Source: Mobula hypostoma
Taxonomy: Eukaryota
DNA length: 64,000 bases
Assembly (NCBI RefSeq): GCF_963921235.1
Contig: NC_086097.1
Coordinates: 52,144,001-52,208,000, forward strand
Reading direction: 5' to 3'
Shown: one piece after another, positions 7,387-54,790 of the stretch
Layout of the letters: every line of letters starts with the position of its first letter
How positions within the stretch are numbered: position 1 is the stretch's first letter
Program-made: the position numbers and the translations under genes
Notes under the pieces: model-generated
The model's database searches: none
What the model was told of the DNA's origin: nothing
Seen by the model: only the letters and a program-made list of their open reading frames with translations

Positions 7387-7537
7387 AGCACAAGGAAATC
7401 TGCAGATGCTGGAAGTACAAATAACACACACAAAATGCTGGTGGAACGCAGCAGGTCAGGCAGCATCTATAGGAAGAGGTACAGTTGACGTTTCGGGCCG
7501 AGACCCTTTGTCAGGAAAAAACGTCTTGGCCCGGAAT
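7387..7537 (-). mobile_element. Short Penelope-like insertion with degenerate hammerhead motif
   Basis: Flanked by 9-bp duplication GTCAGCAGA (7378-7386, 7538-7546). The minus strand reads CTGACAAAGGGTCTCGGCCCGAAACGTC, homologous to the 47012-47243 element. Confidence 0.75.
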
Positions 7538-8610: not shown

Positions 8611-11600
8611 TAGAAACATAGAAAACCTACAGTACAATACAGGCCCTTCGGCCCACAAAGTTGTGCCAAACATGCCCCTACCTTAGAAATTACTAGGCTT
8701 ACCTATAATCCTCTATTTTTCTAAGCTCCATGTACCTATCCAAAAGTCTCTTAAAAGACCCTATCATATCCACCTCCACCACCGTCACTGGCAGCCCATT
8801 CCACACACTCACCACTTTCTGAGTAAAAAACTTACCCCTGACATCTCTGTACCTACTCCCCAGCACCTTAAACCTGTGTCCTCTTGTGACAACTATTTCC
8901 GCCCTGGGAAAAAGCCTCTGACTATCCACACGATCAATGCCTCTCATCATCTTATACACCTTTATCAGGTCACCTCTCATCCTCCGTCACTCCGAGGAGA
9001 AAAGGCCGAGTTCACTCAACTTATTCTCAGAAGGCATGCTCCCCAATCCAGGCAACGTCCTTGTAAATCTCCTCTGCACTCTTTCTATGGCTTCCACATC
9101 CTTCCTGTAATGAGGCGACCAGAACTGAGCACAGTACTCCCAAGTGGGGTCTGACCAGGGTCCTATATAGCTGCAACATTACCTCTTGGCTCCTAAATTC
9201 AATTCCACGATTGATGAAGGCCAATACACTGTACGCTGCCTTAATCACAGAGTCAACCTACACAGCTGCTTTGAGCGTCCTATGGACTCGGACCCCAAGA
9301 TCCCTCTGATCCTCCACACTGCCAAGAGTCTTACCATTAGTACTATATTCTGCCATCATATTTGACCTACCAAAAGGAACCACTTTGCACTTATCTGGGT
9401 TGAACTCCATCTGCCACTTCTCAGCCCAGTTTTGCATCCTGTCAATGTCCTGCTGCAACCTCTGACAGCTCTCCATACTATCCACAACACCTCCAACCTT
9501 TGTGTCATCAGCAAACTTACTAACCCATCCCTCCACTTCCTTATCCAGGTCATTTATAAAAATCATGAAGAGTAAGGGTCCCAGAACAGATCCCTAAGGT
9601 TCTCCGCTAGAGACTGACCTCCATGCAAAATATGACCCATCTACAACCACTCCTTGCCTTCTATGGGCAAGCCAGTTCTGGATCCACAAAGCAATGTCCC
9701 CTTGGATCCCATGCTTCCTTACTTTCTCAATAAGCCTTGCATGGGGTACCTTATCAAATGCCTTGCTGAAATCCATATACACTACATCTACTGCTCTTCC
9801 TTCATCAATGTGTTTAGTCACACCCTCAAAAAATTCAATCAAGCTCATAAGGCACGACCTGCCCTTGATAAAGCCATGCCGACTATTCCTAATCATATTA
9901 TACTTCTCCAAATGTTCATAAATCCTGCTTCTCAGGATCTTCTCCATCAACTTATTCTTGAATAAAGGAAAAACATCCGCAACCCTCCAATCCTCCGGAA
10001 CCTCTCCCGTCCCCAATGATGATGCGAAGATCATCGCCAGAGGCTCAGCAATCTCCTCCCTCGCCTCCCACAGTAGCCTGGGGTACATCTCATCCGGTCC
10101 TGGCAACTTATCCAACTTGATGCTTTCCAAAAGCTCCAGCACATCCTCTTTCTTAATATCTACATGTTCAAGCTTTTCAGTCTGCTGCAAGTTATCAATA
10201 CAATCACCAAGATCCTTTTCCATAGTGAATACCGAAGTAAGGTATTCATTAATTACCACTGGGATTTCCTCCGGTTCCATACATACTGTCCCACTGTCAT
10301 ACTTGATAGGTCTTATTATTTCACGCCTTATCTTCTTGCTCTTCGCATACGTGTAGAATGCCTTGGGGTTTTCCTTAATCCTGCCCGCCAAGGCCTTCTC
10401 GTGGCCCCTTCTGGCTCTCCTAATTTCCTTCTTAAGCTGCTTCCGATTAGCTTTATAATCTTTTAGATCTCTAACATTACCTAGCTCTCTGAACCTTTTG
10501 TAAGCTTTTCTTTTCTTCTTGACTAGATTTATTACAGCCTTTGTACACCACGGTTCCTGTACCCTACCATAACTTCCCTGTCTCATTGGAACGTACCTAT
10601 GCAGAACTCCACACAAATATCCCCTGAATATTTGCCACATTTCTTCCGTACTTTTCCCTGAGAACATCCGTTCCCAATTTAAGCTTCCAAGTTCCTGCCT
10701 GATAGTCTCATAATTCCCCTTAATCCAATTTAACGCTTTTCTAACTTGTCTGTTCCTATCTCTCTCCAATGCTATTATAAAGGAGGTAGAATTATGATCA
10801 CTAACTCCAAAATGCTCTCCACTGAGAGATCTGACCAGGTTCATTTCCCAATACCAAATCAAGTACAGCCTCTCCTCTTGTAGGCTTATCTACATATTGT
10901 GACAAGAAACCACCTTGAACACACCTAACAAACTCCACCCCATCTAAACCCCTTGCTCTAGGGAGCTGCCAATCGATATTTGGGAAATTAGAATCTCCCA
11001 TCATGACAACTCTTATTATTACACCTTTCCAGGATCTGTTTCCCTATCTGCTCCTCGATATCCCTGTTACTATTGGGCTGCCTATATAAAAAAAAAACAC
11101 TCAGTAAAGTTATTAACCTCCACCCACAGAGACTCCATACACAATTCCTCCACGGCGTCCACCTTTTCTACAGCCGTGACATTATCTCTGATCAACAGTG
11201 CCACGCCCCCACCTCTTTTGCCTCCCTCCCTGTCCTTTCTGAAACATCTAAAACCCAGCACTTGAAGTAACCATTCCTGTCCCTGAGCCATCCAAGTCTC
11301 TGTAATGGCCACTGCATCATATCTCCAAGTACTGATCCACGCTCTAAGCTCATCTGCTTTGTTCACAACATTACTTGTGTTAAAATAGACGCATCTCAAA
11401 CCTTCAGTCTGAGTACGTCCCTTCTCTATCACCTGCCTATCCTCCCTCTCGCACTGTCTACAAGTTTTCTCTATTTGTGAGCCAACCTCCTCTTCCCCAG
11501 TCTCTTCAGTTCGGTTCCCACCCCCCAACCATTCTAGTTTAAACTCTCCCCAGTAGCTTTAGCAAACCTCCCTGCCAGGATATTGGTCCCCCTGCGATTC

Positions 11601-12083
11601 AAGTGCAACCCATTCTTTTTTACAGGTCACACCTGCCCCAAAAGAGGTCCCAATGATCCAGAAATCTGAATCCCTGCCCCCTGCTCTAATCCCTCAGCCA
11701 CGCATTTATCCTCCACCTCAATCTATTCCTATTCTCACTGTCGCATGGCACAGGCAATAATCCCAAGATTACTACCTTTGTGGTCCTGCTTCTCAGCTTC
11801 CTTCCTAACTCCCTGTAGTCTGTTTTCAGGACCTCATCCCTTTTCCTACCTATGTCATTGCTACCAATATGTACCACGACTTCTGACTGCTCTCCCTCCC
11901 ACTGCAGGATATCTTGGATACGACCTGAAACATCTCGGACCCTGGCACCTGGCACCTGCATCCACAGAATCGCCTGTCTGACCCCCTAACTATAGAGTCC
12001 CCTATCACTGCTGCCTTCCTCTTCCTTTCCCTACCCTTCTGAGCCACAGGGCCAGACTCTGTGCCAGAGGCACGGCCACTGTT
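8611..12083 (-). mobile_element. Near full-length CR1 LINE (ORF1 SGNH-esterase remnant, APE endonuclease, RT), pseudogenised
   Basis: ORF1 motifs VIGDSIVRG and VVHIGSND; EN motifs AITETW, MGDSNFPNIDW and SDHN; RT motifs YMDFSKAFDKVPH and KFADDTK; TTTCTATG-type tail at 8611-8625; multiple stops and frameshifts. Confidence 0.93.
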
Positions 12084-18793: not shown

Positions 18794-18833
18794 TGTGTTG
18801 AGCTTTCGAGCCGAGACCCTTCATCAGGACTTT
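18794..18833 (-). mobile_element. 40-bp hammerhead-core-only Penelope-like insertion
   Basis: The minus strand reads AAAGTC-CTGATGA-A-GGGTCTCGGCTC-GAAA-GCTC-AACACA, flanked by CAATGAC (18787-18793, 18834-18840). Confidence 0.6.
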
Positions 18834-24047: not shown

Positions 24048-25483
24048 ACTTTTTAAAAAAGGAGGGAGAGAGAAACTGGGGAATTATAGACCAGTTAGCC
24101 TAACGTCGGTGGTGGGGAAACTGCTGGAGCCAGTTATCAAAGATGTGATAACAGCACATTTGGAAAGCGGTGAAATCATCGGACAAAGTCAGCATGGATT
24201 TGTGAAAGGAAAATCATGTCTGACGAATCTCATAGAATTTTTTGAGGTTGTAACTAGTAGAGTGGATAGGGGAGAACCAGTGGATGTGGTATATTTGGAT
24301 TTTCAAAAGGCTTTTGACAAGGTCCCACACAGGAGATTAGTGTGCAAACTTAAAGCACACGGTATTGGGGGTAAGGTATTGATGTGGATAGAGAATTGGT
24401 TAGCAGACAGGAAGCAAAGAGTGGGAATAAACGGGACCTTTTCAGAATGGCAGGCAGTGACTAGTGGGGTACCGCAAGGCTCAGTGCTGGGACCCCAGTT
24501 GTTTACAATATATATTAATGACTTGGATGAGGGAATTAAATGCAGCATCTCCAAGTCTGCGGATGACACGAAGCTGGGCGGCAGTGTTAGCTGTGAGGAG
24601 GATGCTAAGAGGATGCAGGGTGACTTGGATAGGTTGGGTGAGTGGGCAAATTCATGGCAGATGCAATTTAATGTGGATAAATGTGAAGTTATCCACTTTG
24701 GTGGCAAGAATAGGAAAACAGATTATTATCTGAATGGTGGCCGATTAGGAAAAGGGGAGGTGCAACGAGACCTGGGTGTCATTATACACCAGTCATTGAA
24801 AGTGGGCATGCAGGTACAGCAGGTGGTGAAAAAGGTGAATGGTATGCTGGCATTTATAGCAAGAGGATTCGAGTACAGGAGCAGGGAGGTACTACTGCTG
24901 TTGTACAAGGCCTTGGTGAGACCACACCTGGAATATTGTGTGCAGTTTTGGTCCCCTAATCTGAGGAAAGACATCCTTGCCATACAGGGAGTACAAAGAA
25001 GGTTCACCAGATTGATTCCTGGGATGGCAGGACTTTCATATGAAGAAAGACTGGATGAACTAGGCTTGTACTCGTTGGAATTTAGAAGATTGAGGGGGAA
25101 TCTGATTGAAACATATAAAATCCTAAAGGGATTGGACAGGCTAGATGCAGGAAGATTGTTGCTGATGTTGGGGAAGTCCAGAATGAGGGGTCACGGTTTG
25201 AGGATAAAGGCGAAGCCTTTTAGGACTGAAATTAGGAAAAACTTCTTCACACAGAGAGTGGTGAATCTGTGGAATTCTCTGCCACAGGAAACAGTTGAGG
25301 CCAGTTCATTGGCTATATTTAAGAGGGAGTTAGATGTGGCCCTTGTGGCTAGGGGGATCAGAGGGTAGAGGGAAGGCTGGTGCAGGGTTCTGAGTTGGTT
25401 GATCAGCCATGATCATAATAAATGGCGGTGCAGGCTCGAAGGGCCGAATGGCCTACTCCTGCACCTATTTTCTATGTTTCTAT
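24048..25483 (+). mobile_element. Young 5'-truncated CR1 LINE with open RT/C-terminal ORF2 (419 aa)
   Basis: Uninterrupted ORF 24109-25368 with QHGF, YLDFQKAFDKVPH, GVPQGSVLGP and SADD (from FADD); 3' UTR and TTTCTATG tail. Confidence 0.95.
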
Positions 25484-26053
25484 AAAGAAATGGAGATACT
25501 CTGCATTTTATAGGAACTGAAAATACCACTGAGATGTCACTTTCATATTGGATATGTACATTGATGTAATCTATATCAAAGTTAACATTGACTTTTAGTA
25601 TCATTTTAGTAAAATGTGGTTTATTTCTATGGATGTAAAATGCATTCAAGGTTACAATTTACTTTGGATATTATATTCTCCCTTGAACAGCAAAGCTTTG
25701 TCAAACTATTCATGGCCTAACAGGCTCTGGTGTCTCCTGTCACTTGTAAATTGGAATACAAGTTGAGCCTGTTGAAGATGTTGAACCTGTGATGCATGAG
25801 AAGTATATTGATTCAACTCCTCGGTGCAATGAGCCTGCCTTCTGGATTTTGTACATTCAACACACACTATGTAGTGTAGAGTTTCTTGACTGTGAAAGTG
25901 TGTCTAATATTACAAAAAGACATGTACTGAACAAATATTGAGAGGCTTGCACCCTTTCTGACTTATGTGAAAAGTGCATGGATGTCTTGTGGTTGTGGCA
26001 ATTTAATCTTATGGAATATTAAGTAATAAGCTGCAAACGAAGGCTCACTCTAA

Positions 26054-30970: not shown

Positions 30971-32928
30971 TAACTTTTATGAGCAAGGGAATCTGTTTCC
31001 TCCCATTAATATTTAACTGACACTGTAGAAATCTGGGTCTTGAAGTGGGGGCCAGAAATCAGATCCACAATACAGAAACAATGCTTTAGCATAGTTTGCT
31101 GTTTATGGTTTTGCATGAGAAATCTGACATAGAGGAAAAATACAATCTTTATTATCGGCCTCTTATTATCTAGATTACAGAATAAGGAAACATCGATAAT
31201 AATAATAATTTGTAAAGACGACAAAATTATTTTTCTGCTCTTTTAACTTCATGGAATTAGATTGGATCGTTGTTGAGATAAATGCATTTAAAGGAGCCAC
31301 TCATTTACTCACATTAAATTCAGTGTAATTTTGCCATCTCCTCCACGTTAAATCACACCAATGAATTGGATTTTCACACTCCCCCCCCCAACCACCAGCT
31401 CTCACACATCTTTAAAAAAAAACTCTGTGTAGTAGACAGCACTTGCACTTTTTATGTTATTCTCGAACTTGCCTTTTACAAGTGTGCAAGTGATGCATGC
31501 CTGTGCCTTTACTTTCACTGTGTGTAAGAATGCTGGTAAGAGATTTTTGTATGCATAAATATGCAATAGCTATGTAAAATGCACGATTTGAAATCAATTT
31601 CTAAAAGCTGTAGCAAATGTGGACAACCTTGAATCAAACATGAATGATCCATTATGATTTTAATTTTAATTTTGTGACAAAACTATTTTCTTGAACACTT
31701 CTGTACCTTACACTCTGAATAATTATAGCCTGATGAAACTTCATTTGTGAGAACAGTGAAGCATGACAAAACTCATGTCATCTGCTCTTTATTGAGAGAT
31801 ACAGGCTCTTCTAGCCCAACGAGCCCACACCTCCCAATTAACCTACTTCCCCGTATATCTTTGAAATGTGGGAGGAAACTGGAGCACCCGGAGGAAACCT
31901 ACACAGTCAGAGGGAGCATACAAACTCCGTAGGGACAGTGACGGGAATTGAACCTGGGTCGCTGGCTTTGTAATAGCATTCTGCTAACCCTGTTCCCACA
32001 CTACTTTTAAACACACACTAGGGCTTTATTCCGAAATCCTTTTTTTGAAGTCACTGAGGCCTCTGCTTCTTTCAAGTACATCAGGACCCAGTTTTTGCAT
32101 CCTTGCAAATGTACAGACCATCTTCTAACACCCCCTTTAAGCATAATGGTGTATTAATAGGAGTAAAATCCTGAATATCTGCCATTCAGGGTGCCAAATT
32201 ATTAGAGTTTTACTGTAAATGTAGTTGCCTTGTAGACAAATTAATTCAAAATATATATATTTATTTCAGTGATACAGCACAGAGTAGGCCCCTTCAGTGC
32301 TTCAATCTCCAACAAACCCGATTAACACTAACCTAATCACGGGACAAGTTACAATGACTAATTTACCTTTGGCCTGTGCAAGGAAAGTGGAGCACTGGGG
32401 AAAACCCAGGCATTCCACGGGGAGGGTGTACAGAGACTTCTTGCAGAATGGCCCCAGAGTTGAACTCCGAACCCTGGAACACCCCAAATTACAGCAGTGT
32501 CTCACTAAACGACACGCTGCCATAGAGATTATGTATACTCTAACATAACCTTAGTGGTGACATTCCATCAAACCACAAATGATTTAACTAATTTGCCCAG
32601 CTGGCAGGTTTCTAGCAGAGAAAATCATTGTCAGATAGCTGCCAATAAAAGCACAACCATGAAGATTTAAATACCTGCGTGACACTGTGATTCGAGAAAA
32701 TTGCTGTTCATCTCCACACATCTGCATAGCTGTGCTGCCAAGTTTTTATTCCCACAGTCTGAAAAATAATTCACCTTGCGTTCAAAACATTAAGTGCTAA
32801 AGATCTGCTCCAGAGCTAGCCAGTCCTCTTCTTAAAATATTTCATGTTAGTTACAACATTGCAAATATAATGCTTCCAAGGTAACACCCACAAACTACTG
32901 AGGGAACTCAGCAGGTCAGGCAGCATCT

Positions 32929-33599
32929 ATAGAAAAACATAGAAAATGGGTGCAGGAGTAGGCCATTCAGCCCTTCGAGCCTGCACCTCCATTCAGTATG
33001 AGCATGGCTGATCATCCAACTTAGAACCCTGCACCAGCCTTCCCACCATACCCCCTGATCCCTTTAGCCACAAGGGCCATATCTAATTCCCTCTTAAATA
33101 TAGCCAATGAACTGGCCTCAACTGTTTCCTGTGGCAGAGAATTCCACAGTTTCACCACTCTCTGTGTGAAGAAGTTTTTCCTAATCTCGGTCCTAAAAGG
33201 CTTCCCCTTTATCCTCAAACTGTGACCCCTCGTCTGGACTTCCCCAACATCGGGAACAATCTTCCTGTATCTAGCCTGTCCAATCTCTTTAGGATTTTAT
33301 ATGTTTCAATCAGATCCCCCCTCAATCTTCTAAATTCCAACGAGTATAAGCCTAGTTCATCCAGTCTTTCATCATATGAAAGTCCTGCCATCCCAGCAAT
33401 CAATCTGGTGAACCTTCTTTGTACTCCCTGTATGGCAAGGATGTCTTTCCTCAGATTAGGGGACCAAAACTGCACACAATACTCCAGGTGTGGTCTCACC
33501 AAGGCCTTATACAACTGCAGTAGTACCTCCTTGCTCCTGTACTCGAATCCTCTTGCTATAAATGCCAGCATACCATTCGCCTTTTTCACCGCCTGCTGT
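32929..33599 (-). mobile_element. Young CR1 3' fragment, same subfamily as 24048-25483
   Basis: The reverse complement is near-identical to 24816-25483 (KKANGMLAFIARGFEYRS...KPFRTEIRKNFFTQRVV). Confidence 0.93.
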
Positions 33600-34290: not shown

Positions 34291-37200
34291 AGAATGAAGA
34301 GTCAATGTTTTGGGGCAAGACACTTCATGAGTTCTGTGACGACCTTCATTTCCAAGATGTGGCCTGTTCTCAAAAGTCAGGGTAAATCCAGTCTGGCCAA
34401 TTACCGCTCCATTAATCAACTCTCAACCATCAGCACAGTGATGGAAGTAACATTGACAATGCTATCTAATAGAACATTGCTCTTTCTTTGGCTTCATCAT
34501 GGGCCAATCACTCAGGATCTCATTACAGCTTTGGTCTAAGCTTTGTTAAATTAGGGTGATTTAAAAATGACTGACTGCCATGTTTTCAAGGCATCCCTTT
34601 GCTGAGTGTAACATCAAAGGAAGTCAAGGGAAATTGGGTTAAGCTATTCACTTGTCCAAACTGTACACAGCCCAAGCATTTTCTCATGGTTGTGCAAGTC
34701 CAGTGACAATGCAGGAGTTCCTCAGTAGAACCATGTTAATTTCTTCATCAATGATTGTCCCTCCATTGTACGATTGGAAGTAATATTGCTTGTTAATCAC
34801 TATGATCAGTTCTATTCATAATTCCATTGATAATAAGGGAGTCCCTTTGTGTAGCAGAATCTGGGCAATGTTCAGGCGTGGACAGGTAACTGGAAGTAAT
34901 TTTTATGCTACATTGTGTCTGACAATGGCTTTCTCCAACTAAGGTGAATCTAGCAACTCCTCTTGACATTGTCTAAGGCTTCACCATCAGCATTCTGGAA
35001 AGTTATCATTAGTTAGAAGCTAAATTGGACCAGCCACATAAATGCTGTGGCTACAAGAGCAAGCAAGATTCTAAATATTCAGCAGAATTGATTCAGACTA
35101 ACCAAATCTCTATTGAAATACTTTCCCCTTGTCCAAAGCAGTGCTGTTTTAGCAAAATTCAGGGTATCTGATATCATCAAAGGCAAAGCCTTTTGTTTGA
35201 CTGGCACTCCATTCACACCCTACACATTTATGCCCTCCACTGCTACTGCACTCTCTCTCCAATGTGTACCAACAAGATGGACTGTGGCAGCTTAGCAAGA
35301 CTTCTTCACCAGTTCCTCCATGATGTAGAAAAGGAAAGCCAGCAAGTGACCTTCCATCAGTATGTTTCCTCAGAGTCATGGCATGGAAATACGTCTCCTT
35401 TACTTTATTGACGCTGCATCTAATTCCTGGAATTTTCTGCATAGCAGTGCTGAGGGAGAACCTTCAGCAGTTTATGAAAGTGATTTGTAAGGGACAACAA
35501 ATGCTGGTGATGTGCTCATCCTCTGAATGTTGAATATTCATCATGCTGAATACATTGGACTATTAGGCGTCAAAAGGCTGACAAATAGCAGAAGTTGACC
35601 TTGGAGAGGAAGAAACAATCAATTTGTCAGGCTGAGAATCTCGGGCCAGAACTTCGACTGTTTATTCCTTTCCATAGATGCTGACTGACCTGCAAGTTCC
35701 TCCAGCATCGTGTGTGTGTGTGTGTGTGTTACTCTGGATTTCCAGCACCTAAAGACTCTTGTGTTTAGGAGTTGACTGCTTTTGGCTGGTTATTTCATTT
35801 TTAATGTTTTCTTACAGTGAAGAAGGAGGCCAATCCTCCCAACCCATCTATGTTAGCTCTTGCAATGTTCCCATTCCCCCACAATTTATTCTCCCTCATG
35901 CTCCCATCAACTCCCCTCCCATTTTCTTGCCACCCATCAACTCAAGGTGCAAGTCACAGCAATCAATTAATGTGTCAACACTTCTTTGGCACGTGGGAGC
36001 AAGCTACCCAAAGGAAATCTAGGTAGCCATCGGAAGAATGTAGCTATTTAGAAAAATAGAGGGCTATGGGTAACCCTAGGTAATTTCTAAGTAAGGACAT
36101 GCTCGGCACAGCTTTGTGGCCCAAAGGGCCTGTACTGTGCTATAGGTTTTCTATGTTTCCAATGTGCTGGGCCCACACAGGTTGTATCAGAGGTCAGGAC
36201 CGAAGGTGGACCATTGGCCTATGTGACAGAAACGCTTACTACTGCATTACAGTGCCAGTCTTGTCTTCAAATATTTTAACCATCTCAGCAAATGAAAAAT
36301 AATTTTAATCTAAATGTACATGCCAAAATTGTGGTCCCACCAGTGCCAAAATTATGTGATCCTTCCTGTACCCTTCTGTGGAATTTCCAATGAGAGTGCA
36401 GCTAAAGAACCAGAAAACAGCTTGGACCTTGGTTTCTGCTTACTTTTCCTGTCAATACCCATAGGGCCTGAGGGCGCTCCCTATGTCCACTCATACTCAA
36501 GAAACTGGAACGCCATCCTGGTGTTTCCACATCCTAGATCTAAATGATTCAAACTCTTTAAGGTCAATAGACTCTAAACTTTGGCTGCCAGCACTCCAGA
36601 TGTAGTGGTTTTTCCTTGTATACACCTCCACACATCCATAAAAACATACTGTATAATGTGTCCGGTCTCCTGTATGATACTTTGTCCTTTCAGGCAAACA
36701 ACTAGGTGGTCAGTCATTGGGCCATTTATTCAGTCTGTTGGGAAGCCGTTGGCTTTGGCTCTCTTTGAGAGACAGCACTTGAGATCAGAAACTTTATTCA
36801 AATGTATTGACCCAACAGTATTTCATGCAACTATTCTAAAAGTATCCATATAATACCTTTACTTTAAGTGCTCACAGCTGGTCACTGTGATATACTTTAG
36901 CACAGTGCTTGATTCAATGGTGCACTACTATGTCTCCCGGGCATGGCAAAATCTCAACAAGCAAGGCTTGTATGATGGAAATTAACCATTTTCTCAGCAG
37001 AGAAACTTGATTAAAAGTAGTACTATATTTCTGTATAATCATTTGCACCAAATTTTCTCTTCACAAGTGCATATCTTGGGATTGTGTACATACTGAAATG
37101 TTCTTTTTGAGTTCTCGAAGAATGGTTTTAGTTATAGGTAATTCTTTAGAAAGTTTTGCAAGTACCATTTATCATGAAGGATCATGTTTCCCTCTCCCAC

Positions 37201-37371: not shown

Positions 37372-37817
37372 CGGGGGTGATTAATAAGTTTGTGGCCTAA
37401 GGTAGAAGGAGCCCATTTTAGAAAACCCCTCCTGCATGTACACACTTAGTCCAGCGGACGTGAAGCATACGGATCTTGGACCTCCAGAAGGTGCCCACAG
37501 CAGGGGTGATTGGTAAGTTCGTGACCTAAGGTAGAAGATGTGTTATTAACTTCAAACTTTCTGCATAATCACTCAAAGAGTTGACCTGCATGTGCATGTA
37601 ACAAGAGCTGTATAACTCATCTCCTTCTACCTTAGGCTACGAACTTATCAATCACCCCTGCTGTGGACACTTTCTGGAGGTCCAAGATCCGTATGCTCCA
37701 TGACCGCTGGACTAAGTGTGTAAATGTAGGAGGGGACTATGTTGAAAAATAAATGTGCTAGGTTTCCTAAAATTGACTCCTTCTACCTTAGGCCACAAAC
37801 TTATCAATCACCCCCTG
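37372..37817. mobile_element. Mariner-derived foldback MITE
   Basis: TA flanks (37370-37371, 37818-37819); long inverted termini GGGGTGATT.ATAAGTT.GTGGCCTAAGGTAGAAGGAG; mariner C-terminal remnant RWTKCVNVGGDYVEK* at 37705-37752. Confidence 0.85.
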
Positions 37818-38650: not shown

Positions 38651-38794
38651 ATCAAGTCAGGACTGACTAAGGATCTCAGCTCGAAACATCGACTGTTTAT
38701 TCCCTTCCATAGATGCTGCTTTGCTTGATTTGTTGTTCCTGCAGTAATGTGTGTGTGTGTGTTGCTCAATATTTCCAGCATCTCTTGTGGTTAG
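38651..38794 (+). mobile_element. Older Penelope-like insertion with degenerate hammerhead
   Basis: 13-bp TSD GCTTCTGTGTCTC (38638-38650, 38795-38807); reads CTGACTA-AGGATCTCAGCTC-GAAACATC-GACTG. Confidence 0.7.
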
Positions 38795-40529: not shown

Positions 40530-42912
40530 GGAGACCAGAAGATGTAAGAGCAAAATTAGGCCATTTGAGCCATCAAGTCTGCTCTGCCATTTCATCATGA
40601 CTAATCCATTTCCCTCTGAGCCCCATCTCCTGCCTTCTCACTGTATTCCTTCTTGCTCTGACTAATCAAACAAATATCAACGTCTACCTTAAATATACCC
40701 AATGACATAGCCTCCACAGCCACCTGTGGCAACGTATTCCACGGATATACCACTCTCTGGCTGAAGAAATTTCTTCTCATCTCTGTTCTAAATGGATATT
40801 TCTCTATTCTGAGGCTGTATCCTTTGTTTCTTTGACTCCCCTACCATAGGAAACATCACTCTATCTAGGTCTTTCAACATTTGATAGGTTTAAATGAGAT
40901 TTCCCTCCCCGCCCCCTGATTCTTCTGAATTCTAGTGAGTATAGGCCCAGAGCCATCAAATGCTTCTCATATGATAAACCTTTCAATTCCAGAACCTCCT
41001 TTGAACCGTCTCCAATGTCAGCGTGTCCTTTCCTGGAGGCCTCAAAACTGCCCTCAATACTCCGTGAAGTCTCGACAGTGCCCAAAAAGCCTCAAAATTA
41101 CATCCTTGCTTTTATTTTCCAGTCTTCTCGAAATGAATGTTAATATTGTATTTGCCTTCCTCACCACTGACTCAGCCTGCATATTAACCTTTAGGGAATC
41201 CTGCACAAGCACTCGCAAGTCCCTTTGCACCTCAGATTTTTGAATTTTCTCTCCATTAAGATAATAGTCCAAAGTACACGACCATACATTCCCCAACATT
41301 TTATTCCATCTGCTATTTCTTTGCTCATTCTCCTAATCTAAGTCCTTCTGTAGCCTCTCCCTTTCGTCAAAACTACCTGCCCCTCCACTTATCTTCGTAT
41401 TGCCTCCAATCTTGGCCACAGAGTCATCAATTCCGTCATCCAAATCATTGACGTATAATGTAAAAAGTGCAGGTCGCTACACAGACCCCTGTGGAGCACC
41501 GCTAGTCTCTTGCAGTCAACCAGAAAAGGCTCCCTATATTCCCATTCCTTGCTTCCTGCCAGTCAGCCAAAGCTCTATCCATGCTTGTATTTTTCCTGTA
41601 ATATCATGGGCTCTTAACTTGTTAAACCACCTCACGTGTGGCACCTTGTCAAAAGCCTTCTGAAAATCCAAGTATATAACATCGACCAATTCTCCTTTGT
41701 CTATCCTGCTTGTTATTTCTTCAAAGAATTCCATCAGATTTGTCAAGCAAGATTTTCCTTAAGGAAACCATGCTGACTACAACATATTTTATCATGTGCC
41801 TCTAACACCCCCAAAACCACATCCTTAACAATCAACTTCAACATCTTCCTGAAGTCAGACTAACTGGCCTATACAGTCGGCCCTCCTTATCTGCGAGTTC
41901 TGCATGTACAAATTCAACCAACCGCGAATCCAGAAAACCCGGAAGTGCTCTTCCAGCACTTGTTGTTCAAGCATGTACACTTTTTTTCTTGTCATTATTC
42001 CCTAAACAATGCAGTATAACAACTATTTTACATGGCATTTACATTGTATTAGGTATTATAAGTAACCTAGAGATGATTTAAAGTATACGGGAGGATGTCC
42101 GTAGGTTATCGTGGATCGAGATCGAAAAAAAAACGTAAGGTCTCTTACTAAGTAAGTCGGAACAGGTACATCCGGTATTATTTAACGTCAGTTAGTCAAA
42201 TGTTTGTCTTAATATATAGTATATATTTTACCTTCCTATGCATATAAGACACTTAAGAAACGTATGTTTCAGTGCCGGGCTCGGGAACGGAAGTTCTTGA
42301 GTTCGATCTGGTGACAGACCACTCCCAAGCGCGCTCTCCATCTGTGCCGGGTTGATGTGCTGGATCAAAAACCCAAAACCTCAAAACCCAATAATTAAAC
42401 CACTGCGTTGCTTAGTAATAATTGTAGCTTTCATCGGGGCAGGGCCTTTCTCACTTTATCCTTTAAAATTGTTCCGATCGTTGACCAACTGTAGCCTAAT
42501 GCTTTTCCAATGACCGATGGCATTTCACCTCTTTCCGATCGCTTTATTATTTCCACTTTATTTTCAATCGTGATCGTGATTATTTTTGTGAGCAGAAACA
42601 CTGCAGACTCAGAGCTCTGCTGCCGGGTCCTAATGTCCACCGCACTGAGACAGGTTAAATAAGGTCCAGGGTTCCGCTGGGTCCTAAGGTCCACCGCATT
42701 GAGACAGGTTGAAAGAGGTACTTGAGTATCCGCATTTTTTGGTATCCACGAGGGGTCCTGGAACCAATCCCTTGCGGATAAGGAGGGCCGACTGTAATTT
42801 CCTTTCTTCTGCCTCTCTCCCTTCTTGGAGTGACATTTGCAATTTTCCATGCCAGAATTCATTGATCCTTGAAATATCATTACTAATGCCTCCACAATCT
42901 CTTCAGCAACTC
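40530..42912 (-). mobile_element. Decayed CR1 RT to 3' UTR, interrupted by a Tigger derivative
   Basis: Motifs TNLMEFFEEIT, YLDFQKAFDKVPH and LGLYSLEFRR; CR1-type 3' UTR. Confidence 0.85.
41874..42794 (-). mobile_element. pogo/Tigger-family non-autonomous DNA transposon
   Basis: TIR CAGTCGGCCCTCCTTATC (18 bp perfect) with TA flanks (41872-41873, 42795-42796). CENP-B/psq-type HTH remnant ITIENKVEIIKRSERGE..SVIGKALGYSWSTIGTILKDK. Confidence 0.9.
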
Positions 42913-43787
42913 TCTATTTCACTTCTGTACGGTGCCTCATCACCATCTGAAATTCTGCTAGCAATAGTTGTGTCATTGACAGATCTATAGATGCCATTTG
43001 GGCTGTACTTAGCACACAGTTGGGCATGTAGAGAGAGTAGAGCAGTGGGCTAAGCACGCATCCTCAAGGTGTGCCAGTTTTGATTGTCAGCAAGGAGGTG
43101 ATGTTATCAATAAAGTATGACTATGACTATTTCCAATCGGCACTGACTGTGATCTCCCGATGGGGGAAGTCAAGGATTGAGTTGCAGGGGGAGGTACAGG
43201 GGCCGAGATTCTGGAGCTTCTTGATTAGTACTGAGGTGATGGTGTTGAACTAAAACTGGTGCTGTTTATTCCATAGTGTGCTGCTTGAGCCTGGGTTTTT
43301 AGCTATGGTGGAATTTCGTATAAAGCTCATTACACAGAGAATGTATGTGGTCAAAAGCTTCACACAGTTCCCCAAAGTGCTTTCCAAACATTTTTGTTCA
43401 GTGTTTGGCTCACCCAGTCAGTGGACTTGTGTGATTAATTTAATTCATTGCATTAGTCTTTGAATATTTTTAATGCATTCAGTGGTGTTCTTATTTGAAG
43501 ACCATAACCATTCTCAGTGTTGATGTGTTTTTGCGGAGATGTGACAATGAGATTAATTGTGTTATCAGGGTATTTGCTTAAAATTCATATCAGAGGCTGC
43601 ATCAGCACTGACATGAGCAGCTAAGAAAGAAATGTCCTATTGGGTTTTTGCATAATTTGTTCAAGGGTTTTAGAAAAGCACACTGCTTGAACACTTTTTA
43701 ATTGATTTTAATGCTATAATTGCTCTCAGATTTAATTATCTATTTAATTCACCGTTTAAAAATGAGCTTAATACTGTGTCAGCCTAG

Positions 43788-44240
<453 letters not shown>

Positions 44241-47011
44241 TAGTGCTGCAAGCTACCATTGCATCCGCTTCATTTGCTTGTTATTACTATCGTAAAACCT
44301 AACACAGACACTTCTGTACAAACAGATATGATTAACAAGTAAAATAAGAGAGCAAATATAATGGCTTCTTTGCATGCCAGGCATTCTGCTTTGAGAATGG
44401 AAAAGAGAATTTCAAACAGTTTGCCTTTGTAAGACTTCTATTTGTCAAGAATGGTGTGACATGTTCTGTTCCGTTTGCAGAGCACGCCTCTGAGGGAGTG
44501 TTTCTGAGAAAGCGTAACACCTATTGCTTAATTACACTTTCAACAAACCATGGAACAAATCACTTTTTGTGCAAGGCTGAACTGCGGAAATTTTCACTGC
44601 AGTTCTTGCGAGGAAGTGGTGGTGGAATAGAGGGCCTGGAAGGCTGTTGATTGAATCACCTTTGAGAATACCCTCCCATTGTCATGGGGTGGTGGAGGGT
44701 CACAATGGACATAGTAGCTTGATAAATGCTTTCAATGGAGAATTATTTCTGATTTACAAGTTTTTTTGCAGCAATATACTTTTTAAAGAATAAATTTGTA
44801 ATATTTTGTAACATACTTCTCTGGTACAAGGAATTGTTCTTAAAACAAAATAGACTTCCCTTTAGTCAGAAACAGATAGCTTGTATAGCCATCTGATTGA
44901 CCTGTTTGTTCTTTACCCATTTTTTTTACAATGGTCAGTTTACTTTAATTGTTTTTTCAGAGTCTGTGCAAAACATTTAACATGCACAAGGAGACGGCCA
45001 TGTAGCTGGACAAGATTTGAAATGTGAGATACTGTAGGTACGTCAAGTGAGCTCACAGAGGAAGAGGCCAACGTCTCTTCAACCTTTTGGAAATATTTCA
45101 AAGGCAGTTCCCCCTCAAAATTTTGGGGGCAGGGGGGTGGCCAGAAACAACAGTCAAATGTAAAAAAGCAAAGAGACGAGGCAACGAAGAGGAAGGGCTT
45201 TAGTTTCCAACCTTGTGCTTGAAGGCACCTGTAATGGAGGTGGCGCTGCATGAGGTGATTGCACAGAGGGTTTTCAGTTTGAAATTGTAGCATGTCTTCC
45301 CCACAGATTGTCTTTGCAACATGTCTTATCCAAGATGAAGGCAGGTGAGAGGAGAAAGCTGACTGTTGCTGAGGTGACCATGTCTTGTGATTAATGTTAG
45401 CTGCGGGTGTCTGTTGCAGTGAATGGTAAAAGTCTGTGTCTGGCTCCTTGTTGCTGTGTTCTAGATATAAATGTAATTAATGACACCTCGGGTATGACCA
45501 GTGAATTGACTGCCAGCTGCTGAGCTGAACACCAGAAACCAGTGTGCAAGTGATCATGTCTGTGATATCAGGTACACTCTCATTGCTGCTTTTTGCAGTT
45601 AGAGCCCTCGGTAGAAAGTAAATATCAGAGGACTCTTAACAAATGTGACTCTGAGGATCTTGGTAGGTGGCCATTGGATGCAGCCTGATCTGTTTGTTAT
45701 TCTTAAAAATCAACTTAAATAGAGAAAGGTTCTCTTTAGGAAACCTAATAGAGAAATAGAGTATTGATTCGGGAGATGTATAGCCTAGGCTGATTCCTCA
45801 GTGCATACTATGTGACTTGTTGCAAGTGCCATCTGTCACTTAGTGATGAAACTGTGATTAGACTGATCTCTAAAGTGAATGTAAAGGATCACACATCTGC
45901 TTAGCATTGAGGGAGTAATCCCTTTGTCCTGACCAACAATAATTCACTAAACATTGTGAACCTGATCATCTGGCCCTACTGTTTGTGGAAGACTGGTGTA
46001 CACTTCTTCTCTGCTGCATTCCTTTCGAACGGCTGTTCAGAAATTTGTTTTCCGCAGCACTCTGAAGTTGGGAAAGAATCGTCATAAATGTTTTTCATTC
46101 CCTCAGAGTACTAGGTGTGTAATGAATAATGATAAAAGCCTCAGACTGCTAGCAACAACCTAATCAAAAGGGATAAATAACTGAAACTGAACTGAACTTT
46201 CATGTTTTGTGTGTTACATACTGGCCTTTAACGTGAAGAATATTCTAAGGTGGCCTCAAAAAGTGAAGGAAAATGGGAGTCTGGAAAAGGGAGGGGAAAA
46301 TTTGCTGCTCAGAGGAGCTCCATTGTTCCTCTGATCAGCTTTGGATCATCCATTTTGCACAATCCTCAGGAAGGACACTGTTGTGTTTATCCTTAATGTC
46401 AGCTGGTCTTCGCCACCCTCTACCTCTCTTCCCACTGAACTTGTCTCTTAATGGCTCCAAATCAGGATCCCAACCCATGTCCAAGTCCCTTTCCACCTTG
46501 TTCATACATGCATTTTGTAACATCTTTCAGGTCTACTTGAAGAAGTCACCTCTACTGTCATTATCTTCACCCATTCATTGGCCATTCCTTCAACCAGTTT
46601 GGCTCCCTAAACAGTTTACTCCCTGTTTAGATTACCACTTGCCCAAGTGTATACTTGGCTGCCTAGTACTGCCTTCTGAAATTCAGCATCACCTTTTTCC
46701 TGATTGAAGCTGTGTGAGGACCCTTGGGACTTTTTTCCTGCAAGCTGCTGTCATTGTTGCTGAGGTAACAGCCACAGAGTACTCATGCCATAATGCAGAC
46801 TTCACTGCAATCAAATCAAGGGAGAGAAGTTCAAAGCAGGTCAGGCAACATTGTTGGAAAGAAGACCAAAGTTAACATTTCAAGTTGATGACTTTCCATC
46901 ATGCTTCGTCCAGGATAGTCTGAACACTGTTTAGCTAGACCACATTGTAGTGACTGATAGGACCAGACATTTCAAAAGCAAGTGTACCAAAGTAATCATC
47001 TCCATGTTTTC

Positions 47012-47243
47012 GCAACATACATCAAAGTTGCTGGTGAACACAGCAGGCCAGGCAGCATCTATAGGAAGAGGTGCAGTCAACGTTTCAGGCCGAGACCCTT
47101 CGCAGTCCTGACGAAGGGTCTCGGCCTGAAACGTCGACTGCACCTCTTCCTATAGATGCTGCCTGGCCTGCTGCGTTCACCAGCAACTTTGATGTGTGTT
47201 GCTTGAATTTCCAGGATCTGCAGAATTCCTGTTGTTTGCGTTT
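47012..47243 (+). mobile_element. Penelope-like palindromic insertion, 232 bp
   Basis: 14-bp TSD ATCTCCATGTTTTC (46998-47011, 47244-47257); 91-bp inverted arms at 47012-47102 and 47112-47202. Confidence 0.85.
47102..47141 (+). ncRNA. Minimal type I hammerhead ribozyme motif (Penelope-type)
   Basis: GCAGTC (stem I), CTGACGA, A, GGGT/CTCG/GCCT (stem II), GAAA, CG, TC, GACTGC (stem I'); predicted cleavage after C47135. Confidence 0.75.
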
Positions 47244-50221
47244 ATCTCCATGTTTTCTGTGATTTGGTCATGTTTGATCAGTTTCCCTGTTATTTTACTC
47301 ACTCTTTAAAATTAAATTGTGCTGATAACAAGCCAATAAGCCGTAACTCAACACTTTATTTAAGGGATGTGGACATCCCTGGCAAGGCCAGCAATTATTT
47401 CCCACCTCTAGTTGCTTGTGAGATGATGATGGTGAGCCATCTTCTTGAACGACTGTGGTCCTTCTTGTGAAGGTACTTCACCGTACTGTTGGATAGGATT
47501 TAGGCCCACAGGTGATGAAGGACGGCGACGTATTTCCGAGTTAGGATAGTGGGTGACTTGGATGGAACCTGCAGGCGGTGGTGTCTCCATGTGCTTGAAG
47601 ACTTTGTCATTCTTGGTGATAGCGATCACGGGTTGAGAGATGGTGTCAGATTAGTCTAGGTGAGTAATTGTAGTTCATTTTTGGAGTTCACTGCAGCCAT
47701 TTCACACCGGTGGTGGAGGTGTTTTCCTCATCTTTCTCAATCTTCATTGTGTTCTACAATTTCAATCTTGGGAACTCAATTCTAATTTCGGTATTTTTAC
47801 TTGATTGTCTTACTTTCAGACTGATATATAAATTTTGAAGAACTTAAATGTTTGGCTACTGAAATACTAAGATTATTTATTGCAAAGACCCAGGAGATCA
47901 TAATTTGAACTTTACAGTTCGAGCATTTCTTTAGTACACGTATTTTATAGGATATCCAATACCTTACAGAGAATGGATTGAAAAGGCTCTGACCATTGTA
48001 TTGAAAGATGATTTGGTGCTCAAAGTTATAAAAATCCTTCAAAAGAAATAAAACCTTTGCAAGGCATTTCATAAAATGCAGAGGTACTATCAAAACCTGT
48101 AGAATAATAAACCAAAAGTATCAAGAATTGGAAGTAATAGAAAAATCAGAAATATTTAGTTGGCCAGGCAGCATCTGTGGAGAAAGAAATTGAATCGACT
48201 CAGGTTGATGATTCTTCAACAAAATTCGAAAAGTGAGAAGAAATTGAAAAGCTGACTGCTTCTGGCATTTTCTTTGTTTCAGATCACTGGCATCTGAGAT
48301 TTTGATCCATTCTTGAGCATCTTACATGATTGGGATTATGTTGGCAAAATACATCATGATTTATAACACTGTTTCCGATAAAGAAACCATGCATTCAATT
48401 TGTCTTTGCAAGAACACAGGAAACGGCAGCAGAAATGGGCTACCAAACTCCTAGAGCCTGCTCCTTCATTCAAAAAGTTGGTAGCTGATCTGATCTTGGC
48501 CTCAGCTCCACTTAACTATCCTTTCCCCAATAGCCTTGAATCCTTCAACATTCCCAAATCTGTCTGTTTCAGCCTTGCATGCATTCTGCACCCAACTTCA
48601 TAGTTATCAAGAGTAGGGATGTCCAGATATTTTTTGCATCTTTCTGAGAGAAGAAATTCTGCTTTGTGTGCACCTAAAATGGGTGAGCACTTACGTAGAA
48701 AGTTCTAGATTCCCTCAGGAGAGGATACATCCAATATTTCATGTGGGTGAAGCAACCATCAAACTACTGCAGGAATTCAGCAAGTTGAGCAGCAACTGTG
48801 CAGGCTGGGAGTGAAGAATTGTTGACATTTTGGGTTTGAACCCTCCATGAGAATGTGTGTGTCCTGATACAGGGTTTTGACCCAATTTTAGTCATTTCCT
48901 TTCCCTTCCCCTCCCCACTCCAACAGATGCTGCTTGATCTGCTGATTTAATCTAGCATTTGTTAGTTGCTCCAGATTCCAGTATCTGCAGTCTCTTGGAT
49001 CTCCTGTGTTTTGATCTAGCTGAGCCTGCTGTAGGATTCATTCTTCCTTCAAATCGCCATCTCCATCAGCTCATCAATTCCTTTGCAATGGTAAACTTCC
49101 TTTCATTTGGCGTTAGCCTTCCCTCCAGAATAGTCTTGTTCTATTGACTGGAGGTGTCTGAAAGTCTGATGGCAGCTAAACCGATCATTTAAAACATATG
49201 ATTATTCTAAGCCTTTTCAAGGTGACATCAATACAAATTGAAGAGATGTTCATTTAAAACGGAGAAGTGTAGAAGTTGCTGAGGCTTGGGAAATCTCTGC
49301 AGTCCTCTTCCCAGCAGGTGGGGGAACCTGAATAATTAGAAGCATTTAAAGTGAAGATGAAGAAACATTGAATTTATTGAGGAATAGAGGGGTTTGGAGA
49401 AATGGCGCAGAAGAGGATTTGAGGCCAGCATAGATTAGCTATGATCATATTAAATAATGGAGCTGGCTTGAAAGGCCTGCCTCCTGTGTTCTTGTGTTTA
49501 TGTCTTTTCAAGTCTTAAAAAGAGCAACTGGGGGAAAAAAAAATGCAGTACTCTTTTCATACCTACAGGAGGAGAAATTTATCTGGTGTTCATGGTAAAC
49601 TGTGGCTGAGTATTGGCTTCTGGGTGTACTTCTCTTTCTATAGCTGCCTTGAAGTTCATCTCTTACTCTTTATGGCAGAAGATGCATTTCTCCTCCATAG
49701 GCACAGCATTCCTTAGGGAGGGACTTTTGTAACAACTTAGCAGCTGCTTTTTCATATGATATTGGAAGAAATGGTTGAATGTTATTCGACATCCACAATT
49801 ACTATATATGATCCATGATTTCCACTAGAACATAATTTTATAAAGAAAACAAAAATGCTGACCAATCCATAAAACTGCAAATGACAGATTAACTCCCTTT
49901 TCTGTGGACTATTGGCAAACAATTCTACAATTTCATATTCTTCTTTTGCCTGGCAGTCAGAAAATCTTCCACTGAAAGGAAGAGGTAAAAATTTGGCATA
50001 AGAGTTTGCACCCTATTCTGCCAGTAGAGTTAATAAAGAAGCCAACTAACCCCAAAATAATAAATGTGTTATGTTAGATCATTCCTAGACCGGAGTTGTC
50101 ATTTTAAGATTAAATTGGCTGAGACGATAGGTCTGCACCCTTAAAGCTAGTCTTGGTGGAGAAACTGCCACCCTTTCTCCAAAGTCATGTGAAATTGTAA
50201 TGCTGCAAAGTAGCTTACTAG

Positions 50222-50395
<174 letters not shown>

Positions 50396-51429
50396 TAATG
50401 GCGGGAGAGTTCCTACCAGCTTTCCTTTGTTACTGCAGAAAATCACACTATGTAGTATAGATACTTGAGAGGAGGTAATTGATTGATTTGTTTATACCAG
50501 ACTAAAAACAGCACAAGTTGAAATGATTGGTTTGTTATTGTCGCATATATCAAGGTGCAGGGCAAAGATTATTTGGCATACAGTCCATACAGATCAATTC
50601 ATTACACGGTGCGTTGAGGTAAAACAATAACAAATGCAGAATAAAGTGTAACAACTACAGTGAAAGTGCAGTACAGGTAAAAAAAATAAGCTGCAAGATC
50701 ATTGCAAGGTAGAGGAAGACTGTGAGGTGAAGAGACTATCTTATTACCCTAGGCAACCATTCAATAGTCTTATAACAACAGGGCAGAAGCTGTCCTTAAG
50801 CTTCAGTGGTATGTGCTTTCAGGCTTTTGTATCTTCCACCCGATCAAAGAGGAGAAAAGAGAGAACGTCCGGGGTGGGTAGGGTTTTCGATTATTCTGGC
50901 TGCCTTTCAGAGGCATTGAGAAATATAGGCAGTCGCTGGTTTCCGTGGTATGAGGGCTGTGTCCACAACTCCCTTCAGTTTCTTGTGGTCACAGGCAGAA
51001 CAATTGCCAAAACCAACTATAATGCATCCATATTGGGTACTTCCTGTGGTGCATCAAAAAATTTTAGTAAGGCTTGATGAGGACAGGCCAAATATCTTTA
51101 GCCATCCTAGGAAGTAGAACCGAGTTTTCTTGACTATGGCGTCTATATGAAAGCACGTGAAATGAGAAATTTCAGTTAGTTTTTTTGCTGATTGGAAAGC
51201 AAATTGACGTGCACTGAAAATATCAGGGCTGTACTTCCTGAAAGTGGAAATGGGTTCTACCAGGTACGTTCCAATGAAACAGATCCCAGTGTGGTTTGAG
51301 AAGTCTTCCTTCCAGCTTAGCTGTAGGATTCATGAATCAAATAGGCATTAAATAATCACTTGGGAAAGCTGAATACATTCAACCCTCAGCTGAAAGGTAA
51401 ATCATTGTCTGGGAGATTTGTTTGAATTT

Positions 51430-53199: not shown

Positions 53200-54790
53200 T
53201 TGGCACTCTCGATGTTGGCAGTGGGTTTGGAGTGGTGACAAGGAGGGAGGGTAGGTACGTCATCGGGGTCATCAGGTGGGCACTCTCCTTCTTTGACGTT
53301 TCATTGATAAGCCCACGACATCTCCAGAGGGCTCAACGGTGCTACCTGGCGTCCCAGATACACCCCCCCCCCAGTTCCATACCCTCCCGTCTTCATCTTG
53401 CAGCCCAGTTGTTGTCTTTCCTTTTAATCCAAATCCAATTGCTGCTTCCTTCTGCTGCATTTGACAAGGATTTGATTGCTTGTTGGAGGGAGTCACCCCT
53501 CACCCCCATCTTCTTCAATAGACTGGTGGTAGATGTAGCAACGAATCTCCTGTATCCCACTTCTACATGGAAAATCTTGGTCTTCCAGCCATTCTGGGCA
53601 GCTTCAGTTGTCAGTTCAGAGTACTTGGTCTTTTCCCTCTCATAAGCTTCTTCGACATCATCTTCCCATGGTACTGTCAATTCCACAACATATGCCAGCT
53701 TGGCTGTTGTGGACCACAGGACCATGTCTGGCCGGATTGTTGTAGCTGCAATGTCTGGGGGAAACACGAGCTTTTTTTCTCAAGTCCACGTCCATTTTCC
53801 AATCCTGAGCAACCTGCAGAATGCTTACATCTTTTGATGTTATATGGTGCTCTGGAGGTTGGCCTGCTGGTACAAACCGTGTGATGTGGACATTTCCTGC
53901 CAATGTTTGTGGGAGAGCATTTGTGGTGACTAGCCTCTGTTCCAAGATTGATGCCAGCTGTCTGAGAACTTGGTTATGCTGCCAAGTGTACCGACCCTGG
54001 GTGAGGCTCGTGGTGCATCCTGTTAAAATGTGCCTTAGTGATCCAGGTGCTTGACAAAGAGAGCGAGCGGGGTCTTCTCCCCACCACTGGTTCAGGTTCT
54101 GGGGTGTGGGTAGGAGGTCATAAGTGGCTCTGATGACAAAACTTAGCTGAGATCCCTCCACCTCCCAGATGTCACGCCAGCTAAGTTTCCTCTTTTCCAG
54201 GCTTTCCCAGTTAGTCCATTGGCCCTGCTTGGTCATTGAGACAGCCCTGGCGTGTCGCTCTGCCTCCTCCTGTCTTCTCAACTCCTCCACCATGAGCCGT
54301 CCCTCCTGCACTGATGTTGCCTTGTGCCATTGAGGAGCCTTTGGGACGAGCCCGAGCCCGGCTCTCCCATGTTGGACTTGGCCAACCACATCCCTGAAGT
54401 GAAGAGCAGACTTAGCACTCTGAACAGCTTCAGATGGGCTCCACTTCCTCCCCGTTGCCACACGGGGGGCCACTGTTCGAATAACAGTATCTTCGGATTC
54501 AGTGAGGGTCATGACCACTCTTGCTTTGGTGCATTTGAATTCTTCCACAAGACTTGCAATTGGTAATTCCAATTTGCCGTTCCCGTACAGTCCAACAGGA
54601 CTTGAGCATCGTGGAAATCCAAGCCACTGTTTTACATGTGTGCTGATCATTCTTTTGAGCTTTTCAACCCTGCTGATGGGGATTTCATACACTGTCAAAG
54701 GCCACATGAGTCTTGGGAGTATGCCGAACTGGAAGCACCACAGCTGGAGTTTTCCTGGCAGCCAGGTCTTGTTGATGCAAGCTATCTACA
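53200..54790 (-). mobile_element. 5'-truncated Hero-like (R2 superfamily, RLE-type) non-LTR retrotransposon
   Basis: LPGKLQLWCFQFGILPRLMWPLTVYE; degenerate zinc knuckle RSLC..L.HIL..C; RYTWQHNQVL; restriction-like endonuclease RPDMVLW...VELTVPWE...K.KY; one frameshift near 53770. Confidence 0.85.

Follow-up and report, generated by a model that had tools for sequence, protein, structure and literature searches.

A lineage-specific insertion of an abundant ray repeat in an FRMD6 intron of Mobula hypostoma: a probable Penelope-like fragment with a hammerhead motif predicted to be locked in a hairpin

The stretch of Mobula hypostoma DNA analysed here (64 kb, referred to below as the window) contains part of FRMD6, a Hippo-pathway gene that reaches past it. 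The FRMD6 protein of a stingray mapped onto the window as ten pieces, all on the + strand. The coding exon at 43887-44226 (+, residues ~333-445, followed by GT at 44227) matched FRMD6 proteins in a protein search, the best match being that of the stingray with 99% identity. The next coding exon lies at 50259-50413 (+, residues ~446-497, preceded by AG at 50257-50258), and protein mapping together with the GT/AG ends places an intron of 6,032 nt (44227-50258, +) between the two. A 232-bp insert at 47012-47243 falls between these two pieces of the protein, ~2.8 kb from the intron donor and 3.0 kb from the acceptor. The first-pass annotation had called the insert intronic and in sense to FRMD6, and this is correct since the gene is on the + strand and the insert is within the 6-kb intron. 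The upstream part of the same intron is covered by run X9, which is guessed to be an RNA run from another sample and consists of contigs only. One X9 contig (44197-44776) has a depth of 17, which equals that of the exon contig and exceeds that of the other intronic pieces, and its end lies 13 bases before 44789, the sole AATAAA/ATTAAA hexamer between the donor and the insert. These observations hint at a short FRMD6 isoform that is polyadenylated within the intron and whose reading frame stops five intronic codons past the donor; the site has no relation to the insert, which follows 2.2 kb downstream. No X9 contig across the insert was among the matches listed, none of the runs is recorded as RNA, and X9 is silent on cleavage or editing.

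Comparison of the sequence with itself showed that the insert is bounded by identical 14-mers at 46998-47011 and 47244-47257; the computed probability that two given sites agree by chance over 14 bases is ~6e-9. Contigs from four sequencing runs (X1, X5, X11 and X9) were aligned to positions 43800-50500. Two of the four runs represent other species, X5 being from organism B and X11 from organism C, and both of these showed an empty site, in a single contig each (X5 record 16 and X11 record 12). In these contigs 46997 is joined straight to 47244, so that 246 bases (232 + 14) are skipped and the target sequence is present once. The empty sites prove that the 14-bp target site duplication is real, and the insert itself is lineage-specific, being missing in the two related species. 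The limits given in the first-pass annotation, a 232-bp insert with a perfect 14-bp duplication, were exact. Divergence of the flanks was 72 of 4,949 bases (1.5%) with respect to organism B and 84 of 2,232 bases (3.8%) with respect to organism C. Given these low values and the empty sites, the insertion is most simply dated after a recent split. An assembly artefact was ruled out because contigs of X1, possibly the source sample of the DNA, enter the insert from both unique flanks with no differences. An empty-site contig was not among the matches listed for X1; as contigs drop alleles, the source animal may nonetheless be polymorphic for the insert.

The dominant feature of the insert is a 91-bp inverted repeat of 97% identity (47012-47102 and 47112-47202) that covers the whole ribozyme sequence and was given too little weight in the first-pass annotation. 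The left arm (47012-47102, -) is an inverted, tail-less copy of a pseudo-LTR fragment, which ends inside the hammerhead core and is complementary to 47112-47202 with three mismatches. It is followed by the inversion junction (47103-47111), the centre of a near-perfect palindrome that is one base short of a junction form recurring in other copies. The right arm belongs to a direct, 5'-truncated pseudo-LTR fragment (47104-47202, +), which carries the hammerhead. The direct arm alone is extended by a 41-nt segment (47203-47243, +) that corresponds to the 'tail' described for Penelope-like elements (PMC8557442, PMC3846280, PMC11167929). The insert is not pristine: two of the three arm mismatches are at CpG, and position 47215 is G where the family depth in the run contigs reads C in 5.10 of 5.23 million. 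This anatomy also bears on the copy of the hammerhead on the minus strand, which was said in the first-pass annotation to lack a core A, leaving only the sense copy competent. The missing A is the inversion breakpoint. In the mirror copy the motif breaks off at the inversion junction: there is no 5' stem I strand at all, position 17 is U, and the letters that look like its 'CUG' are merely complementary to the stem I strand of the direct arm. A selected asymmetry between the two copies is therefore rejected in favour of a breakpoint.

Inspection, folding and comparison with the consensus in the supplement of PMC4209133 all identified 47102-47141 (+) as a minimal type I hammerhead motif. Stem I is formed by 47102-47107 and 47136-47141, the core by 47108-47114, followed by an unpaired A at 47115, stem II at 47116-47127, GAAA at 47128-47131 and ACGU at 47131-47134; C17 is at 47135, and the would-be cut lies after this base. 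The CUGANGAH core (47108-47115) and the GAAAN and NUH site (47128-47135) of the published minimal hammerhead (min-HHR) consensus are present, as are palindromic positions 15-16 in place of helix III, here the ACGU. By its letters, then, the motif fits the minimal Penelope consensus as given in that supplement, in agreement with the type proposed for it originally. It further resembles the metazoan min-HHRs set out there in the unpaired base before stem II, the order GAAA-C-GU-C, the short helix I and, in the family, the pyrimidine-rich 5' flank (PMC4209133). It differs from them in its short helix II, 4 bp that begin and end with a G.U pair, where most of the listed examples have 5-8 bp, and in being covered by its own antisense copy. 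The first pair of helix II, G10.1-C11.1 in the consensus, is G.U in both arms, while the family copies near 7.5 and 18.8 kb have C; a G.U pair at this place occurs too in Xenopus and cichlid min-HHRs listed in PMC4209133. The part of the supplementary alignment consulted contains no cartilaginous fish.

A chance origin of the motif was rejected on the basis of a pattern scan, in which the core pattern occurred once in the window and in none of 100 shuffles; this is a lenient control, as the pattern was written from this very site. The covariance models of Rfam did not recognise a hammerhead. There was no match at gathering thresholds, and none of the ten matches at E up to 10 was a hammerhead: nine were generic microRNA hairpins, all below their gathering scores, and one was an sRNA. 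The microRNA matches are explained by the long hairpin only, and hammerhead motifs that lack helix III would not be expected to score well with these models. The first-pass annotation was right about the letters of stem I, core, GAAA and ACGU and about their places; the stem I length of six pairs is accidental. In other copies of the family, a run of pyrimidines precedes 47103 (214 X1 contigs) or 47104 (302 X1 contigs), and instead of C47141 a T is read in 3.2 of 8.2 million of X1 depth (~40%) and in nearly all of the X11 depth. The outer one or two pairs of stem I are therefore a product of the inversion junction, and the part of the stem that belongs to the family begins at 47103 or 47104. 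The family copies aligned over the stems were the decayed ones of the window. Upstream variants in the run contigs keep the fifth pair as C-G or, by a one-sided change, U.G; the sixth pair is not kept.

The insert belongs to a very abundant repeat family. No fewer than 91,965 X1 contigs aligned to the 6.7-kb stretch, and the summed X1 depth was ~3.3 million in two bins over the insert as compared with 7 to 34 in most flanking bins. The same pattern was seen in all four runs. Summed depth is no copy number, and great abundance is the safe reading of these figures. Family contigs leave the sequence at 47202-47204 (142 + 167 contigs in X1, 188 + 176 in X5) and continue into unlike AT-rich DNA. 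These exits coincide with the end of the inverted arm, and their recurrence reads as the signature of the tail.

At least six older fragments of the family lie within the window. The window copies are single-arm and variably 5'-truncated, and BLAST found no inverted arm in any of the six other copies tested. None of the other window copies has the full hammerhead motif, and within the window the strict core pattern is unique to the insert. Leaving aside the mirror arm, five other places in the window are within 12 mismatches of this pattern; four of them have broken cores and one has an intact core without ACGU. Decayed fragments in FRMD6 introns, all without a full hammerhead, were located at 7393-7516 (-), 18804-18831 (-), 32882-32935 (-), 35628-35770 (+) and 48870-49004 (+). 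Ahead of an older, tailed family copy at 38654-38783 (+) the junction sequence stands in mirrored form, which would suit an insertion with its tail on the other arm.

A further observation concerns the right arm, which contains a 46-codon open frame that is predicted as an exon in two unrelated Mobula gene models (P0121 and P0122). Both models enter the arm at the same splice position and begin with V-S-P-D-E-G; cryptic exons may have originated from this family repeatedly. The shared entry would fit a parent element with a splice acceptor immediately 5' of the hammerhead, a site that the present copy has lost. The end of an intron is reported to be similarly placed in the Penelope element of Drosophila virilis (PMC4209133).

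To which class of elements does the insert belong? A typical Penelope insertion comprises a pseudo-LTR and an adjacent inverted copy, with a 31-bp tail on one of them and a target duplication of 8-10 bp (Arkhipova et al. 2013, PMC3846280), and the same pattern has been described for all endonuclease-bearing clades (Craig et al. 2021, PMC8557442). The insert shows an inverted, 5'-truncated pseudo-LTR adjoining a direct copy, a tail on one side only, a target duplication with an empty site and a hammerhead within the pseudo-LTR. It shares with the insertion units of Penelope/Poseidon, Neptune and Nematis, as these are presented in PMC3846280 and PMC8557442, the head-to-head arrangement of inverted 5'-truncated and direct pseudo-LTRs, the junction palindrome, the tail at one end, the short target duplication and the hammerhead inside the pseudo-LTR. 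It differs in comprising the last 140 bases only and in having no open reading frame. Its tail (41 nt) and its duplication (14 bp) are also a little longer than the published examples of 30-40 bp and, in Adineta, 8-10 bp. A further parallel is the Poseidon element PAc of Anolis carolinensis (PMC11167929). There, too, the hammerhead is followed closely by two recurring 3' ends, between which the tail lies, genomic copies are made from uncut RNA and both target strands are used. PAc is, however, autonomous and has an ORF starting at stem II, where the insert has no AUG. Animal non-LTR retrozymes are also short, non-coding, derived from pseudo-LTRs and hammerhead-bearing (bioRxiv 10.64898/2026.07.22.740005; PMC7229834), and ~42-44% of the Xenopus copies overlap introns (bioRxiv 10.64898/2026.07.22.740005). 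They are head-to-tail tandem repeats in which dimers are possible in cis, whereas the insert is a single head-to-head palindrome, and a retrozyme was ruled out on these grounds.

Membership in the Penelope group rests on architecture and motif, as neither a reverse transcriptase nor a GIY-YIG frame could be tied to the repeat. Protein searches with the 46-residue frame of the right arm returned no Penelope protein, only the two gene models in which the arm is exonised. No Penelope-type ORF was detected in the window by a Pfam scan of 68 of the 108 long frames and a motif scan; the domains recognised by Pfam were reverse transcriptase, APE-endonuclease and CENP-B remnants belonging to other elements, with GIY-YIG absent. 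Pattern scans of metagenome and viral contigs yielded no copy of the family, and eight matches to a 20-mer in a prokaryote collection were taken as chance. Similar repeats are presumably labelled Penelope in the repeat libraries of cartilaginous fish. Taken together, the structural features indicate that the insert is very probably an endonuclease-bearing Penelope-like unit truncated to its last 140 bases. The view of it as a young, non-coding insertion of Penelope type, with a true target duplication and a minimal type I hammerhead motif, is upheld. It is a real feature of a known kind in a new host. The literature search brought up no publication that deals with this ray repeat's hammerhead, which is weak evidence that none exists because subscription papers and repeat databases were mostly outside the search.

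Several other elements were noticed in the window. A broken LINE at 9261-11985 (-) has GDSL-esterase-like, APE-endonuclease and reverse transcriptase pieces and is of CR1/L2 type by the order of its domains. Open frames of 375 and 128 aa at 53393-54785 (-) resemble, on visual inspection, the C-terminal portion of a non-LTR retrotransposon of the restriction-endonuclease type, with no Pfam match at E 0.001. A weak match to the CENP-B N-terminal domain at 42434-42913 (-) is likely a remnant of a Tigger/pogo transposon, and 37373-37815 is occupied by an unrelated, MITE-like element of 443 bp with terminal inverted repeats and 73% self-complementarity. Finally, FRMD6 contains two 675-bp copies with 94% identity in opposite orientation at 24816-25488 (+) and 32926-33599 (-), near reverse transcriptase-coding remains; pairing of the two in the pre-mRNA could give a long double-stranded RNA.

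Evidence on how the inverted arm was formed comes from the junctions of other family copies. A T inserted behind 47102 was found in 50, 33, 2 and 0 contigs of X1, X5, X11 and X9, respectively, and the omission of 3 bases at 47102 in 13, 8, 2 and 1. Both forms centre on short palindromes that stem I and the core contain in the family sequence itself. It was also observed that both recur at the same base in three species and that each, on inspection, is a perfect palindrome with a 2-base loop. Junction palindromes of Penelope insertions have been read as the result of self-priming (PMC3846280). In the anole element both target strands are cut and extended, the tail is delimited by two start sites of reverse transcription, and the template is mainly RNA that has not been cleaved (Frangieh et al. 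2024, PMC11167929). The endonuclease of the ray element would have nicked both strands 14 bases apart, and its reverse transcriptase would have started at the end of the tail and copied the RNA up to the 5' strand of stem I. Because the copy runs across the would-be cleavage site, this RNA was presumably uncut. The inverted arm would then have arisen by fold-back self-priming at the tiny palindrome in the 5' stem I part of the ribozyme sequence or, alternatively, by a second priming event in which the other nick was used together with the start site that leaves no tail.

It might also be argued that the palindrome is a mobile unit in its own right, a non-autonomous, MITE-like retroelement copied whole by Penelope enzymes, and was not made by a one-off fold-back at insertion. 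The unit has a clean target duplication, and the exact recurrence of two junction forms at 47102 in three species could point to a palindrome that travels as a unit. However, two perfect hairpin forms built on native short palindromes are just what repeated self-priming would predict in the light of PMC3846280. The single-arm state of all six other window copies tested also speaks against a palindrome that moves as a whole. Moreover, a 91-bp hairpin RNA is a poor template for reverse transcription. We therefore consider a mobile palindrome improbable and retain formation of the inverted arm at insertion as the preferred reading.

The inverted arm bears on the question of activity. In the original proposal the sense copy is a working hammerhead that could cleave the FRMD6 pre-mRNA behind C47135, either by itself or in dimeric form. 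All core letters are indeed present, the motif is in sense to FRMD6 and the isolated 40-mer forms stems I and II. The prediction for the complete insert is quite different. It folds as one hairpin with -193.3 kcal/mol, compared with a shuffle mean of -71.8 (z = -25), and a conformation in which stems I and II are imposed and the core is kept open lies 49.5 kcal/mol higher within the insert, with or without 200-base flanks, compared with 4.2 kcal/mol in the isolated 40-mer. The predicted probability of the open ribozyme in the insert is ~1e-35. During transcription the inverted arm is made first, and at seven of the eight tested nascent lengths that reach into the right arm, all of those from 47120 on, bases of the right arm were predicted to pair with the left arm with a mean probability of 0.91-1.0; only at length 47115 were they still unpaired with it. 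As a consequence, the ribozyme core is predicted to be captured before the cleavage site has been transcribed. These figures are equilibrium nearest-neighbour predictions for each length; they are neither a kinetic simulation nor an experiment.

Even in isolation the motif is predicted to favour an inactive fold in which the core is paired with the ACGU region, and a dimer held together by the four-base ACGU helix would gain only -1.7 kcal/mol. The motif requires a partner for dimer formation, and there is no intact partner copy in the window, which covers part of the gene only. About 10 bases of the left arm, as in a construct starting at 47092, suffice to remove stem I in the folding calculations. 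The construct 47095-47150 that had been suggested for transcription in vitro leaves out nearly all of the inverted arm and so represents the isolated motif, not the pre-mRNA. Published minimal hammerheads do not cleave in monomeric form, and their dimers are weak or depend on protein (PMC4209133, PMC11167929, bioRxiv 10.64898/2026.07.22.740005). In the minimal hammerhead assayed by Cervera and de la Pena (2014, PMC4209133) the monomer showed no cleavage and the dimer or trimer showed little. The anole ribozyme was inactive without the protein of the element and no RNA-seq ends fell at its site (PMC11167929), and one of nine Xenopus dimers was cleaved (bioRxiv 10.64898/2026.07.22.740005); cleavage as a dimer is the model stated in a review (PMC6765202). 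Since the inverted arm is predicted to fold over the ribozyme as one long hairpin, and since no intact dimer partner lies in the window, a competent hammerhead that cuts the host RNA is very hard to maintain, and the ribozyme likely leaves FRMD6 RNA intact. The idea that the insert is a DNA-transposon MITE whose terminal inverted repeats contain a hammerhead-like string by chance would suit its small size, its lack of coding capacity, the long inverted repeat, the target duplication and the very high copy number, but it was ruled out because the repeat is not terminal, the 41-nt tail lying outside it on one side, and it is further contradicted by the single-arm, variably 5'-truncated window copies and by the match to the Penelope hammerhead consensus.

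With a high degree of confidence, we thus regard the insert, 232 bp long and lineage-specific, as one copy of a very abundant ray repeat. It is likely a 5'-truncated Penelope-like copy that was dead on arrival, with a hammerhead predicted to be locked in a 91-bp hairpin and likely inert in the FRMD6 pre-mRNA. The left arm, being transcribed first, would pair with the ribozyme core during synthesis; the intron would then carry a neutral double-stranded stem and no working ribozyme, and the insertion would be near-neutral for FRMD6. A recent retro-insertion cutting the pre-mRNA of a Hippo-pathway gene would have been the consequence of the first interpretation, against which the inverted arm argues. 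The locus itself carries little weight: the repeat has very many other copies, close relatives lack this one, and it is predicted to be inert.

The meaning of the finding may rather lie in the family. The recurring inversion junctions would be good material for the study of the unsettled mechanism of second-strand synthesis in Penelope elements. A more far-reaching reading, which we put forward tentatively and consider unlikely, is that the ray ribozyme sequence serves as a fold-back primer, its short palindromes in stem I and the core causing reverse transcription to turn back repeatedly at two fixed positions in at least three species. Hundreds to thousands of perfect self-silencing hairpins would be formed in this way and, their ribozyme being blocked, tolerated in sense introns, and they would constitute either a genome-wide source of long double-stranded RNA (for A-to-I editing and small RNAs) or a mobile palindromic unit. 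If this were true, the formation of Penelope inversions would become testable at the level of single bases within one very large family.
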